From positions 2,048,001 through 2,112,000 of the forward strand of contig CM000152.2 in NCBI GenBank assembly GCA_000004695.1: DNA of 64,000 nucleotides, in the 5' to 3' direction. The position numbers and the translations under genes are program-made. Source of the stretch: Dictyostelium discoideum (Eukaryota). The notes beneath the pieces were generated by a model that ran no database searches, had not been told where the DNA came from, and worked only from the letters and a program-made list of their open reading frames with translations. Below are positions 25,749-57,867 of this stretch, piece by piece (the first letter of the stretch is position 1; each line of letters opens with the position of its first letter).

Positions 25749-26775
25749 GCAATTTAATTATTTTATTTTTATTTTTTGATTGTTTACACAATTATAATTA
25801 AATAAATAAATAAATAATAATAATAGTAAGAAAATATTTTAAATCTGTTAAATCATCATTTTAAATTAATTAATTAATTTCATTGGGAATAAACACCATT
25901 TTTATTCAAATAATTTTTTAAATAATAAATAATAAAAAAAAAACGCAAATAATAATATTCGTACCTTTTGGAAATAAAAATAAAAAAAATAAAAATAAAA
26001 ATAAAAATAAATTAAAATAAAAATAACCCAAAAATAAATAAATATTACCAAATTTTATTTTTTTTACATTTTGTTCATTCAAATTTAAATAGACACTTCC
26101 AAAAATAAACAACAACAACTAAAAATAATATCAAATAATAAATATAATTTTCAGAAAAAAAAAAAAAAAAAAAAAAAAAAGGAAATTCAAATTAAATATA
26201 AAAAAAAAATACTCTCTTTTTTATTAGCAATTAATTAATTTTTTTTTTTTTCATAGTGGAAAATATTCCAAAAAATATTTGTCTCAATACTTATTAAAAG
26301 GGTTTTTATTATATCTTTTTTTTTTTAAAAATTCTTAAATGGATTATACAAAAATATTTTTAATAATATTTATTTTTATCATATTTTTAATTTTATTAAT
26401 TTTAAATTTGAAGTAAGTGAAGTTTTATTATAAAAAAAAAAACAAAATAAAAATAAAAATAAAAATAAAAATTATTTAAATTACAAAATTTTATTTTTGG
26501 AAAATTTACTAATTTTTTTTTTTTTTTTTCCTAAACAATTTTTATTTTTTTTATTTTTTTTTTTTTTATCACCTTTTACCAAAATTATTTTTATTCCAAT
26601 TATTTTTTTTATTTTTATTTTTATTTTTTAATTATAATATATTGAAATTAATTAAAAAAATATATTTAGATATTTAATTACTTTAAAAAGTAATTTTAAA
26701 CATAGAGTAGCATGGAGAAATTGTAAAAAATTAAAAATTTCAATTCCAATTGAAAAAAGAAAAGATATTAAAGAA

Positions 26776-27435
26776 TTGGAAAAATTATTGGAAAAAAAGT
26801 TAAAAAAAGTTTTAGAAAAAATTCATTCTGGATCAATTTTATTAATTCAAAATAATTCAGATCCAGTTTCAATTTTTATGAGATTAGGTATAACTGGAAG
26901 ATTCTCACATAGTGCAATAATTTTAAAACCCAACTTTTTCAAAGAATCTCATATTGATAGTGAAACTCCATTACTTTGGCAAGCAGCTGGTGAAAAAATA
27001 TGTTCTAGAAATAGTGGACCTGACGTTCACTCCCTTTGTGAATTTCTATCAGTTTATATGACCCTCTACCCAAATTGTAGATACGCCATTAGAAATCTTT
27101 CGAATCCATTAAACGTTGACCAATCATTAAGTTTAGAAGATTTTATCTTAACGACCATTAAACAAAAGAAATTGGTTTTCGTTTCAAATTTCGAAATGTT
27201 TTGGTGTTTTTACACAGAAACTTTATTTAGATTCCTATTGCCATTAGATCCATATATGAATATTTCAAAAAAAAGTGACCTAACTTTTTGTAGTAAATTA
27301 ATTACTGAAACTTATCAATATATTGGTTTAGTTGATAAAAATGTCAATAGTTTTGCAACAACTCCAAATTATTTCAGTTTTCCAAATAGTAATAATATTT
27401 TAATTGATGAAACTGAAATAATTTTCACTCCATAA
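26776..27435 (+). CDS. Hypothetical protein, possibly a permuted papain-fold (LRAT/NlpC-P60-like) enzyme.
   Basis: This is a 219-aa single ORF with Dictyostelium-like codon usage. It has a His-containing motif GITGRFSHSAIILKP early and a Cys-containing motif DLTFCSKLITETYQYIGLV late. That His-then-Cys order resembles the LRAT/PLAAT family (HWAIYVG ... NCEHFV). There is no database confirmation. Confidence 0.55.
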   Translation: MEKLLEKKLKKVLEKIHSGSILLIQNNSDPVSIFMRLGITGRFSHSAIILKPNFFKESHIDSETPLLWQAAGEKICSRNSGPDVHSLCEFLSVYMTLYPNCRYAIRNLSNPLNVDQSLSLEDFILTTIKQKKLVFVSNFEMFWCFYTETLFRFLLPLDPYMNISKKSDLTFCSKLITETYQYIGLVDKNVNSFATTPNYFSFPNSNNILIDETEIIFTP

Positions 27436-27549
27436 AAAAAAAATTTAAATTTATAAATATATATAAATAGAATTTTTTTTATAATAGAGTTTATTTAATT
27501 ATTAATTCAAAAAGTAATAATATTTTAATTATAATATAAATAATAATGA

Positions 27550-27587
<38 letters not shown>

Positions 27588-28120
27588 AAAATAAAATATT
27601 GTAAATAAAAAAAAAATTAAAAAATAAAAAAATTAAAAAATAATATTTATTGTAAAAAAAAAAATAAAAAAATAAAAAAACTATTATTCATTGAAACATA
27701 TTCCATATAATTGAACTCTATATTTTTTTAAAATTATTTTTTCAATTTTAAAATTTATTTTTTAAAAAAAAAATAAAATACCAAAATAATAAAGAATTTA
27801 ATAATGGTGTTTTCAATTTTAAGATTCTTATTTTTAAAAATAATAAATAAATTTATTAATTTTATTTTTTTTTTTTTTTTTTTTTTTTTTTATTTTATTT
27901 TTTATTTCGTAGCAAACAAATGATTTAGAGTAATAGAATTTTAAAATACATTTTTCTTTATTTTTTAAATAATATTAAATCAAAAAAAAAAAAAATTAAT
28001 CAATTAATCAATAAGTGGTGGTTCATTGTGTATATGGTCTTTCAAGTAGGCATTTTTATTTTGATGTAGGTTAATTAAATATATTTTATCATCATCTAAA
28101 TAAAAAGAAAAAACATAATA

Positions 28121-28526
28121 ATAAATTATTTTAAATTTAGTATCTTTAGGGATTATGTCATATGAGGGACAGTGGTGTGGGTATTATGTGGTCGTCTTTT
28201 GAGGTAAGTATTTTTTTTAGGTAATAAATTATTTTAAATCGGTAATTATAGGTATTATGTTGTATGGAGAGGGGAGGGTGGGAATGGGTATTATGTGGTG
28301 GTATTTCGAGGTAAGTGTTTTATTTTAGGTAGATATTAAAATACTTACCTCAAAAGACCACCGCATTATACCCTCCCTTTCTCATTTAACCTATTACCTA
28401 TAACTACTAAATTTGAAATAATTTATAACCATAAAAAAATGCTTACCTCGAAAGACCACTTAAAACCCATACCACTCTCCCCTCCTCATATGACATAATC
28501 CCTAAAGATACTAAATTTAAAATAAT
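28121..28526. repeat. Compound imperfect palindrome of about 400 bp made of four ~95 bp related units. Two are direct on the left arm and two are inverted on the right arm.
   Basis: 28131..28166 (ttaaatttagtatctttagggattatgtcatatgagg) is the reverse complement of 28476..28511. Each unit carries gtggt(c/g)g.cttt(t/c)gaggtaag(t/c)(a/g)ttt on one strand, which is acttacctc(a/g)aaagacc on the other. Units also contain CCC(A/T)(C/T)A-type motifs (atacccacacc, aacccatacc, ataccctccc). No ORF exceeds 60 aa across 27.5-29.7 kb. Confidence 0.8.
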
Positions 28527-29622
28527 ATATTGTATGATCCTTCATTTTATAGTTGTACCAATTAATAAGAATAGTCAATTCTCATTACATAGTTCGTCAA
28601 CTGGAGAGTTAAAAGTGATCAACATCAATGGGAAGTCGTTATAAGATATAAACATTTTAGAGTATTTCAAATTAATAATGAGGTTTTTAATTCATCCTCA
28701 TCAACACCTTCTTCCATTTATTCACCTTCTTCATCTGCACTTGGTGGTAGTAATTATAATTAATTATTAAATTAACCAATTTATATTTATTTTAAATTGT
28801 TTTGTTAAAACATAACTAAAAATAAAATATTAGTATTAACAAGATATTTTAAAAATCTTGGTACATTACATTTTTCAATTCATTTTCCAATAAATTCTTT
28901 GGGTTCATCTGAATAATAATTTTTTTAAAAAAAAAAAAAAAATATTAATTTAATACCATTTATTTATTTTATTTTTATTAAAAAAAAAAATTAATTGCCA
29001 TCAAAACAATTTTAAGATCTAAATTTGAATTTTTTAAATTATCTGTTAAATTCTTTGAAATAATATTATTATTATTTATGGATTATTATTGTTATTATTA
29101 ATTTTTTTTTATTTTTTGAAATCTAGTGATTTAAACAACTTTATTGAATTATCAATTCTTAATCATTTTTTTAAAACAAGATCCACATAGGTTGATAAAA
29201 TTCTAAAAAAAATTTTAATAATATACATGTATATATTCATTAAAGGGTAGATTGGGTCAATTTGGGGTTGTCTTTGTATATGTATAAGATAGCTTTTATA
29301 TTTTCTAATTATTTTTGTATATCAAAAAATTTAAAGAATTAGAAATAATATTTTTTTTTTATTTTTATTTATATTTTTTATTTTCGCCTTAAATTTACAA
29401 CTCGGGGATGGTGAAGTATTTATAAATAATATATTTAGCAGTACTTTTGGTCAATGGTAGGTGAAATAAAATATCTTATTGATTTTCAAAATGATTTAAA
29501 ACGTTTTTTTGAGAAAAAAAATAAAAAAAAAAGGAATGGGAAATAAATTTATGACAATGATTTATTTATTTTATTATTTACTTATTTTTTTTTTTTTTTC
29601 TTGTTTAACCTAATAACAAAAA

Positions 29623-29665
<43 letters not shown>

Positions 29666-29798
29666 TATTTTGTTTTGTAAAAAAAAGGACATTAAAATAT
29701 TGATCTTGAAGCTCTGACCCTTGATGAATGTTTTTTAATTTTTTTTGATTTTTCTTCTTCAATGTCATCATCGTCAGATAGGATGATGTCAAGTTTCT

Positions 29799-31468
29799 TC
29801 AATAACTTTGAAGTATTTTGTTTGGTTGATCTTTTTTCTTTCTCCTTCTCTTTCTCTTTCTTTTCTTTTTCTTTTTCTTTTTCTCTTTCTCTTTCTTTTT
29901 CTTTTTCTCTTTCTTTTTCTCTTTCTCTTTCTCTTTCTCTTTCTCTTCTCTTTCTCTTTCTCTTTCTTTTCCTTTTCCTTTTTCTTTTTCTTTTTCTTTT
30001 TCTTTTTCTTTTTCTTTTTCTTTTTCTTTTTCTTTTTCTTTTTCTTTTTCTTTTTCTTTCTCTTTCTCTTTCTCTTTCTCTTTTTCTTTCTCTTTTTCTT
30101 TTTGTCTTTGTTTTTGTTTTTCTTTTTGTTTTCTCTTTTTGGAGGATTTCTTTTCTTCAACTTTTTGTTCATCAACTTCTGGTTCATTTTGAAGATCAGT
30201 CTCTTCATCTACATTAACTTTAAGTTCTTTTTCGAACTCTTGACATGTTTCATTTTCTCTCTCCTCGTCAACATCTTCAACTTGTTCAACTTGTTCATCA
30301 GCTTGTTCATCAACTTTATCATCAACCTGTTCATCAACTTCTTCATCAACTTCTTCATCAACTTCTTCATCAACTTCTTCAACTTCCTCATCAACTTCTT
30401 CATCAACTTCTTCATCAAATTCTTCATCAAATTCTTCACCAACCTCTTCATCAACTTCTTCATCAAATTCTTCATCAACTTCTCCATCAACTTCTTCAAA
30501 TTTTTCATCAACTTCTTCGTCAACTTCTTCATCAACTTCTTCATCAATTTCTTCATCAACTTCTTCATCAAATTCCTCTTCAATGGCATTTTCATCAACT
30601 ACTTCTCCTTCCCCCTCTTCTTCCTCCTCTACCTTATCATCTACTTGATTACTAACTGAATCGAATGGTAAATGGTCCATCGAAACATCTGATTCTGTTT
30701 CAGAATCATCATCAAATTGACAAACTTCTTTTTGTGGAGTATCAGCAAAATTAATAATGTCAGAGTTTTCATAACTATTGTAGATGATAGGATATTTCTT
30801 TTTAATTGATTGAATAAATTCTTGGTTGATAACATCATGTTCATAGTGTCCATTATCCTCCTCCTCTTCCTCTTTCTCATTCTCGACATTACCATCATTT
30901 TGATGTGTATCATCATCACCAGCAGCAGCAGTAGCAGCAGCATCATAATTAATTGACAAAGAATGAATATGATTTCCACGATTATGTCTTCTCCATAATG
31001 AATTATATCTGTTTGGTGCCCAAACTAATCTTACCCTTTTGAAAAAGGTGGATTTTTTAGCAACTTTTATAATTGGTTTGATTTGAACATCTTGATGAAT
31101 GTCATCCATCATTTCTTGTTGTTGTTGTTCTTCTTCAACATGTTTAGATGATTCATCATCAAATTCTTCATTTTCAAGGTCTTGATTTTCTTCTTGTTCA
31201 AATTCCTTTTCATTCTCACTGGTATGAGTACTTTCCTCTTGTTCCTTTGTTAAAAGACTATTGAACATTGAATTAACTTCGGAAAAAGCTCTTTGTGGAG
31301 AAAGTGAATTTTCAATGTTGATTTCTAATGATTGTTGTTCTTGATTTAATTTTGATGTTGAATTAAGATTTTTGTTTGGTGTATTATTTGGAGTTTTTTC
31401 AACAATGGTTGATGCTCTCTTAATATTTACATTTTTTTTAGTGGTTGATTGTGGTGATTTAAATTCAA

Positions 31469-55499: not shown

Positions 55500-55570
55500 G
55501 TGCGTATGCTGGGAATCGAACCCAGTTCGCATCCGTGGCAGGGATGCATCATACCACTAGACCACATACG
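55500..55570 (-). tRNA. tRNA-Gly (anticodon GCC).
   Basis: The minus-strand sequence GCGTATGTGGTCTAGTGGTATGATGCATCCCTGCCACGGATGCGAACTGGGTTCGATTCCCAGCATACGCA folds as a cloverleaf with a 7-bp acceptor stem GCGTATG/CATACGC. The anticodon loop is CTGCCAC (anticodon GCC). The T-arm is GGGTTCGATTCCC (B box), and there is an A-box-like TGGTCTAGTGG. The sequence is highly similar to eukaryotic tRNA-Gly-GCC. A T-run (TTTTGGGG) lies just 3' on the minus strand, consistent with a pol III terminator. ORF 55427..55633(+) is an artefact overlapping it. Confidence 0.92.
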
Positions 55571-55635
55571 CTTTTTTTTATGATATTTAAAAAAAATATC
55601 TTAAAAAATTTTGATTTAAGAAGAAGCAACTAAAA

Positions 55636-56522: not shown

Positions 56523-57867
56523 ATGAAATTACTTATTTTAACTTTATTTTTAGCTACTATTGTTTTAGCTCAAGCTTTAACGTAAATATTAAGATTTATT
56601 ACTTTAATATATAATATTTTCAAACAAACAATCAAAAAAAAATAAAAATAAAAATAAAAAATAAAATAAAATAAAAAAATAATTATAATAATAATAATAA
56701 TAAAAGAATAATAAAAAAAAATAAAATAAAAAAATAAAAAAATAAATATTAATAATAAATTTTAATTAAAATAGAGTACCATTAAACTTCCATCAAGCTT
56801 CAAGAGAATCTAGAAGAAGAGTTCCACAAAAATGGTCAAACAGATTATCTGCTCTCAATGCTGGTACCACAATCCCAATTTCAGATTTTGAAGATGCTCA
56901 ATACTATGGTGCCATTACCATTGGTACCCCAGGTCAAGCCTTCAAAGTAGTTTTCGATACTGGTTCATCCAACTTGTGGATTCCATCAAAGAAATGTCCA
57001 ATCACTGTTGTTGCATGTGATTTACATAACAAATATAACAGCGGTGCCTCAAGCACATATGTCGCCAACGGAACTGATTTCACCATCCAATACGGTAGTG
57101 GTGCTATGTCAGGTTTTGTCTCTCAAGATTCCGTCACTGTTGGTTCATTAACTGTTAAAGATCAATTATTCGCTGAAGCCACTGCCGAACCAGGTATTGC
57201 TTTCGATTTCGCCAAATTCGATGGTATTTTAGGTCTTGCTTTCCAATCCATCTCTGTTAATTCAATTCCACCAGTCTTTTACAACATGTTATCACAAGGT
57301 TTAGTTTCATCAACACTCTTCTCCTTCTGGTTATCAAGAACTCCAGGTGCCAACGGTGGTGAACTCTCATTCGGTTCAATCGATAACACCAAATACACTG
57401 GTGACATTACCTACGTCCCATTAACCAACGAAACCTATTGGGAATTCGTTATGGATGACTTTGCTATCGATGGTCAATCAGCTGGTTTCTGTGGTACTAC
57501 TTGTCACGCAATTTGCGATTCAGGTACATCACTCATTGCTGGTCCAATGGCTGATATTACTGCCCTCAATGAAAAATTAGGTGCTGTCATCTTAAATGGT
57601 GAAGGTGTCTTCTCTGATTGTAGCGTTATCAACACCTTACCAAATGTTACCATCACCGTTGCTGGTCGTGAATTTGTTTTAACTCCAAAAGAATACGTTT
57701 TAGAAGTTACTGAGTTCGGAAAGACTGAATGTTTGAGTGGATTTATGGGTATCGAGTTAAACATGGGAAATTTCTGGATCCTTGGTGATGTTTTCATCTC
57801 TGCTTACTATACTGTATTCGATTTTGGTAATAAACAAGTTGGTTTCGCAACTGCCATTCAAGGTTAA
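56523..57867 (+). CDS. ctsD: Cathepsin D (lysosomal pepsin-family aspartic protease) preproenzyme. Structure is join(56523..56581,56775..57867).
   Basis: Exon 1 encodes the signal peptide MKLLILTLFLATIVLAQAL-T and ends at a GTAAAT donor at 56582. The acceptor is AAAATAG at 56774. Exon 2 encodes a propeptide, then ...DAQYYGAITIGTPGQAFKVVFDTGSSNLWIPSKKC...IQYGSGAMSGF...FDGILGLAF...AICDSGTSLIAGP...FWILGDVFISAYYTVFDFGNKQVGFATAIQG. Both catalytic motifs are present (DTGS and DSGT). The total of 383 aa matches my memory of Dictyostelium cathepsin D. Confidence 0.9.

Follow-up and report, generated by a model that had tools for sequence, protein, structure and literature searches.

A compound palindrome specific to Dictyostelium discoideum in the spacer between two convergent genes: a possible non-coding foldback element

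The window analysed here, 64 kb of Dictyostelium discoideum DNA with a G+C content of 22.6%, contains a long inverted structure in a spacer between two genes, which raises the question whether it comprises genes for small RNAs, a regulatory or splice-site-mimicking sequence, a mobile element, or a repeat formed in place. The first-pass annotation placed a compound palindrome of two direct and two inverted units at 28121-28526, and its extent is borne out at essentially the same coordinates (Table 1). The element is 412 bp in size and is composed of four units of ca. 100 bp, two per arm, flanking an AT-rich centre of about 10 nt. Aligned with one another, the four units have identities averaging 82% per column, and searching the window with their profile recovers exactly these four. 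Each unit comprises an AT-rich linker and a core of up to 50% G+C, after which come the sequence GAGGTAAG(T/C) and a T-run. The core sequence GGTCTTTYGAGGTAAGY occurs four times (0.00 expected), and all three exact copies of GAGGTAAGT in the 64-kb window lie within the palindrome. The arms are strongly skewed in base composition, the left one being G-rich (60 G, 7 C) and the right one C-rich (51 C, 8 G). In a scan using non-AT seeds the palindrome is the only complex palindrome of the window, the other seed cluster being a (GGT)n/(ACC)n repeat within a coding region. The element is non-coding: it contains no open reading frame of at least 25 aa, and its six-frame stop-free peptides, concatenated, match none of 5.8 billion proteins at E<=10.

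Table 1. Features of the palindrome and of the surrounding spacer (positions in the window)
Feature	Positions	Strand	Basis
Whole compound palindrome (foldback element), two ~205-bp arms	28120..28531		repeat search, arm alignment, DNA and RNA folding
Left terminal inverted repeat, 48 nt, single mismatch at 28124, perfect from 28125	28120..28167	+	repeat search
Right terminal inverted repeat, mirror of 28120-28167	28484..28531	-	repeat search
Unit L1, outer left, G-rich strand up; GAGGTAAGT at 28201-28209	28121..28224	+	unit alignment, profile search
Unit L2, inner left; GAGGTAAGT at 28308-28316	28225..28331	+	unit alignment, profile search
Unit R2, inner right, inverted; GAGGTAAGT on the minus strand at 28343-28351	28334..28424	-	unit alignment, profile search
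Unit R1, outer right, inverted; GAGGTAAGC on the minus strand at 28441-28449	28425..28526	-	unit alignment, profile search
Central hairpin, best-paired inner part	28285..28374		sub-threshold Rfam matches, RNA fold
Possible degenerate partial unit TGGTCTTTCAAGTAGGCATTTTT, outside the left end	28014..28063	+	local alignment (0/200 shuffles); nhmmer E=0.74, weak
D. discoideum-specific spacer DNA, ~1.95 kb, surrounding the palindrome	27546..29500		alignment with D. citrinum (~215 nt there)

The palindrome folds far better than expected from its composition. The 421 nt comprising it give a minimum free energy of -122.8 kcal/mol as DNA (z=-26.3) and of -220.8 kcal/mol, i.e. -0.52 kcal/mol/nt, as RNA (z=-26.4), and none of 100 shuffled sequences folds equally well. 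Such a structure could be suspected of being an assembly artefact, an alternative left open in the first-pass annotation. This is excluded, since the arms have diverged from each other by 22% and the element is present in an independent D. discoideum assembly (GCA_054883475.1), which is 99.6% identical to the window over 21 kb and differs within the element by a single SNP (28431 A>C).

The absence of genes around the palindrome, also claimed earlier, is confirmed for the interval from 27436 to about 29690-29799. To its left lies a two-exon gene (26339-26412 and 26670-27435, plus strand), whose 279-aa product is 100% identical to DDB_G0279455 of strain AX4, and to its right a gene coding for a 1068-aa protein on the minus strand, beginning to the right of about 29690-29799; the palindrome is thus situated in a spacer of ca. 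2.3 kb between the 3' ends of a convergent pair. A protein search with a low-complexity 867-aa neighbour gave no match.

Orthologues of DDB_G0279455 are found in D. citrinum, D. dimigraforme, D. firmibasis, and D. purpureum, and the loci of the first three (43 kb in total) were compared with the window. In these three sister species the spacer of the convergent pair is only about 470-750 nt long, and searches with BLASTN and with the unit profile give no trace of the palindrome there. Homology with D. citrinum ends near 27545 and resumes near 29500, so that about 1.95 kb specific to D. discoideum replaces about 215 nt. There is no clean empty site, since the element lies within a segment that as a whole is unalignable with the sister species. 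Searches for the origin of the flanking spacer DNA (tblastx and blastn, with the remainder of the window and the sister loci as targets) gave no match, and the only larger inverted repeats around the palindrome are poly(A)/poly(T) matches. The D. dimigraforme spacer has a hairpin of its own (L006:9396-9472), unrelated to the palindrome, with a perfect 17-bp stem, AAAGATATCCTCAAATT ... AATTTGAGGATATCTTT, adjoining a GC-richer lineage-specific insert. Judging from these comparisons, the spacer seems to gather lineage-specific DNA.

The distribution of differences between the arms bears on the origin of the palindrome. The first-pass annotation gave the outermost inverted repeat as perfect over 36 bp; its uninterrupted run is in fact longer, 43 nt. 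In the repeat search the outer inverted repeat comprises 48 nt at 98% identity, and the inner arms are 86% identical. When the left arm is aligned globally to the reverse-complemented right arm, 172 of 221 columns match (78% identity), and the outer block accounts for 45 matches in 46 positions, as against about 75% identity elsewhere. In successive blocks of 24 columns, the two outermost reach 96% and 92% identity; values of 75-83% follow, and the minimum, 54%, is found within the inner unit. The difference between outer and inner conservation is significant in Fisher's test with a conservative split (p=0.02), and under a uniform decay of 25% the chance of finding no more than one mismatch in a block of 46 nt is about 3e-5. 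Conserved ends with a diverged interior fit the pattern of a transposon whose ends were recently functional, and they fit poorly an old duplication made in place that decayed evenly.

We therefore favour, tentatively and without regarding it as established, the interpretation of the palindrome as a non-coding foldback (MITE-like) element specific to the D. discoideum lineage. According to it, arms of ca. 205 bp, each made of two diverged subrepeats of ca. 100 bp, would end in near-perfect terminal inverted repeats (TIRs) of 40-48 bp, and transposition would be the origin of the element, which would have arrived or been built in the spacer after the split from D. citrinum; the 3' spacer between convergent genes may have provided a 'safe' site in a compact genome. 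Of the possibilities listed in the first-pass annotation, a MITE-like hairpin element is the best supported one, with its TIR-like ends, non-coding character, and absence from three sister species, but its candidate target-site duplication (TSD) is not clean. The flanking 8-mers AATAAATT and AATATATT match in 7 of 8 positions and form the only flanking direct repeat with TSD geometry; they are AT-rich, and as a duplication they are ambiguous, because AATATATT is self-complementary, so that the 8-mers may just as well prolong the inverted repeat. If 28120-28127 is the target-site duplication, the TIR comprises 28128-28167.

The element resembles foldback (FB-type) elements and long-TIR MITEs in consisting almost wholly of inverted arms built of tandem subrepeats, with little centre, and in being small, non-coding, hairpin-forming, and located in AT-rich non-coding DNA. 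It differs from them in having only two subrepeats of ca. 100 bp per arm and no clear TSD, the ambiguous 7/8 8-mer being the only candidate. With the known DNA transposons thug-S/T, DDT-A/B/S, and Tdd-4/5, jointly responsible for 1.5% of the D. discoideum genome (PMC5633606), it shares the host. The miRNA sequences of thug-S, the only thug-S-derived sequences compared, have no match in the element and are absent from the window at up to 3 mismatches. Tdd-4/5 generate a TSD of 5 bp (PMC2836005), and no 5-bp flanking direct repeat of this type with the right geometry was found at the element. TGTNR is reported at the ends of Ginger1 and of Gypsy LTRs, the ends of Tdd (Ginger2) not being stated in the same source (PMC2836005); the ends of the element do not begin with TGTNR. 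Should the palindrome be a mobile foldback, the class II transposons of D. discoideum, small in number and little investigated, would be joined by a small non-autonomous DNA element, and an insertion into a 'safe' spacer between convergent genes would be dated as post-citrinum.

The main rival, which we consider rather unlikely though a serious competitor, is that the palindrome arose in place and was never mobile: some 100 bp of spacer DNA would have been duplicated in tandem and then inverted, for example by fold-back or template-switch repair, and the near-perfect ends would result from recent gene conversion between the arms. It accords with the single copy observed, no second one being found, by nhmmer among other methods, in the 64-kb window or in the 43 kb from three relatives; metagenomes gave two unrelated matches only, and prokaryote genomes none or chance matches. 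The overall arm divergence of ca. 22% is not above the interspecies divergence of the spacer, and the spacer has gained lineage-specific DNA in every species examined, the D. dimigraforme hairpin included. The internal relationships of the units speak against it, however. All pairwise identities fall between 66 and 81% (L1-R1 81%, L2-R2 70%, L1-L2 77%), and the mirror pairs show no greater similarity than the left tandem pair, although a simple tandem-then-inverted duplication predicts them to be the most alike. Between the arms there are 9 wobble-compatible transitions as against 3 others, 13 transversions, and 20 gap columns; with indels and transversions dominating, there is no sign of homogenisation over most of the arms, and the identity of 45/46 at the ends versus ca. 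75% inside is not expected under even decay.

Two possible degenerate units outside the palindrome can be read either way. Besides the partial unit to the left (Table 1), a second possible one, marginal (nhmmer E=4.7), lies 720 nt to the right, at 29244-29275. Both have the same orientation, suggesting for an origin in place a local array that was once longer, and the left one, 60 nt beyond the end of the palindrome, is possibly an older relic unit and as such was counted for a mobile origin; the outlying units are compatible with repeated insertion of one family as well as with a decayed local array. Counted against a mobile origin are the single copy observed, the ambiguous TSD, the lack of a clean empty site, the marginal quality of the relic units, and the missing similarity to the thug-S miRNA sequences compared.

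A different kind of explanation starts from the sequence of the units, which led the first-pass annotation to consider a cluster of U1-like genes. A string of the ACTTACCTC type had been ascribed to every unit; it is present in three, while the fourth has GCTTACCTC. Likewise, the full string of the U1 5' end, AUACUUACCU, is limited to two of the four units, the exact 10-mer being found in L1 (as the reverse complement) and in R2, with the variants CACUUACCU in L2 and UGCUUACCU in R1; the shorter ACUUACCUC is found in three of the four. These strings would favour a cluster of snRNA genes or pseudogenes resembling U1 (or U11), which is nevertheless hardly credible. The resemblance to U1 snRNA (Rfam RF00003) amounts to 9-10 identical nucleotides at the 5' end, the part of U1 that base-pairs with 5' splice sites, and the element differs from U1 in having no model match, stem-loops, promoter element, or conservation. 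The covariance-model check proposed earlier retrieved no snRNA family at E<=10 in either 3 kb or 651 nt around the locus, and at the gathering score Rfam recognizes in the whole window tRNA only and no snRNA. Nor do the units have the snRNA-like fold that had been envisaged: on the C-rich strand, that of ACUUACCUC, their minimum free energies range from 0 to -3.2 kcal/mol (z from -0.8 to +1.0), and the G-rich strand of single units folds no better. An Sm-like string, a loose one, is present in one unit only, and the element is missing from the sister species.

The CCC(A/T)(C/T)A motifs, taken in the first-pass annotation for the upstream element of ncRNA genes, do not support such genes either: the consensus of that element, DUSE, is WCCCAYAA, and none of them matches it exactly. 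The near-matches within the palindrome reach only 7 of 8 positions, and their direction would drive transcription outward. DUSE is a promoter element of Dictyostelium ncRNA genes, located ca. 60 nt upstream (PMC7919456). U1, U11, or another snRNA is thus ruled out by the Rfam searches, the single-unit folds, and the DUSE scan, and, as far as its sequence can tell, the element does not encode a U1-like or other structured small RNA. In the window as a whole, WCCCAYAA is strongly depleted, with one occurrence (57743-57750, minus strand) as against 9.3 expected from shuffles.

No evidence was obtained for a regulatory or splice-site-mimic element, either. The invariant GAGGTAAG run is 8 columns long, a length within chance when the invariant columns of the four units are shuffled (P=0.21); special constraint on the splice-site string is therefore rejected on this test, the four copies offering no sign of it. 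The string GAGGTAAGT, with its complement ACUUACCUC, would be a mere component of the repeated unit, copied four times with it, and the resemblance to a splice site or to U1 has no demonstrated meaning. A bolder variant, which we regard as very improbable, is that the palindrome belongs to an undescribed Dictyostelium foldback family whose units carry a 5' splice site on both strands, or that it yields hairpin small RNAs containing ACUUACCUC. Members of such a family, inserted either way round, would supply a donor site in an introner-like manner, and such small RNAs would mimic the 5' end of U1 or mask 5' splice sites. Introner-like elements are TIR elements carrying splice sites, and the palindrome is similar to them in being bounded by TIRs, non-coding, and provided with a consensus 5' splice site on both strands; the D. 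discoideum copy differs in being intergenic, not an intron. We know of no near-identical intron family in D. discoideum.

The same splice-site strings can also be read as traces of a decayed exon-intron array, which is about as improbable. On the G-rich strand each unit would comprise a mini-exon of about 54-61 nt with TTTAG|G in front of it and, behind it, GAG|GTAAGT and an AT-rich stretch of ca. 46 nt, and the G+C content is indeed higher in the cores (0.37-0.50) than in the linkers. Neither spacing of the units, 107 or 98 nt, is divisible by three, however, so that the frames shift between units, and no protein similarity was found; a coding repeat is ruled out on these two grounds. The 'introns' of such an array, 17-46 nt long, seem too short for D. 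discoideum.

Whatever the origin of the palindrome, any read-through transcript of it would be predicted to form an imperfect hairpin of ca. 200 bp, cleavable by Dicer-like enzymes. That the element is a hairpin-RNA gene, a young precursor of the miRNA or siRNA type, is compatible with either origin and is regarded as improbable, though less so than an snRNA cluster or an exon-intron array; Pol II read-through would produce a long imperfect hairpin, which DrnA or DrnB, the Dicer-like enzymes, are predicted to cut. Accepted D. discoideum miRNA hairpins span a range that includes the folding energy of -0.52 kcal/mol/nt (PMC6161686, PMC11014262), and the DNA transposon thug-S is a source of D. 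discoideum miRNAs (PMC4894637). Moreover, a long T-run at 27861-27900, ca. 220 nt upstream, is similar to the T-rich motif preceding pri-miRNA starts, but T-runs are ubiquitous in this genome. The only Rfam matches are weak ones to plant miRNA precursors; they are generic, all fall on the central hairpin (28285-28374), and their scores are far below gathering (29.6 vs 142, 35.9 vs 119). Of the two properties by which a miRNA locus was judged, the stable hairpin is present, and a predominance of pairing-preserving substitutions is not found, there being no significant wobble-preserving bias between the arms. A known miRNA locus was rejected, as none of the published D. discoideum miRNAs matches the element and no nearby chromosome-3 locus is listed (Meier 2016, Liao 2018, Edelbroek 2024). 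The young plant-type MIRNA and hpRNA loci that originate from inverted duplications are similar to the element, a long imperfect hairpin, suitably stable, species-specific, and intergenic; it differs from them in being missing from the D. discoideum miRNA catalogues and in having no target gene related to its arms. Transcription of the element, if it occurs, would make it a candidate for a young hairpin-RNA locus, and nearly all miRNAs of this lineage are species-specific. On present evidence the palindrome ranks as an ordinary lineage-specific repeat, and no sign of a function has yet emerged.

Several further features of the window are worth mentioning. The sequence GGGGAGGGTGGGAATGGG at 28271-28288 (plus strand), in L2, is the sole canonical G-quadruplex motif on both strands of the 64-kb window. 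It is loosely similar to the D. discoideum G4 sequences p5, multi-copy and intergenic, and p4, with a single locus listed, on chromosome 1 (PMC6511855), and this likeness could provide a lead to related repeats. The G-rich intergenic repeats described there lie at chr1:717682-717709 (p4) and at chr1:1755955-1756455, chr2:4788017-4788460, and chr5:849448-850835 (p5). Adjoining the palindrome, at 28560-28760, is a GC-richer, coding-like island with stop-free frames of 56 and 69 aa and a Ser-rich tail. It is specific to D. discoideum, has no counterpart in the rest of the window, in the sister loci, or among the database proteins, and may be a gene fragment or a portion of a larger insert. No transposon-like open reading frame of at least 100 aa was seen on inspection of the 53-64 kb segment, and the tRNA-Gly(GCC) gene at 55500-55571 (minus strand) is the only RNA gene found in the window by Rfam and ARAGORN. 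Finally, the 21-mer GTTTAACCTAATAACAAAAAA is identical in four Dictyostelium species (29603-29623 in the window; L005:9588, L006:9787, and L007:7522 in the sister loci). The AT-rich 3' spacer around it, immediately downstream of the minus-strand gene, is otherwise not alignable, and the 21-mer may be a conserved 3'-UTR or termination signal.
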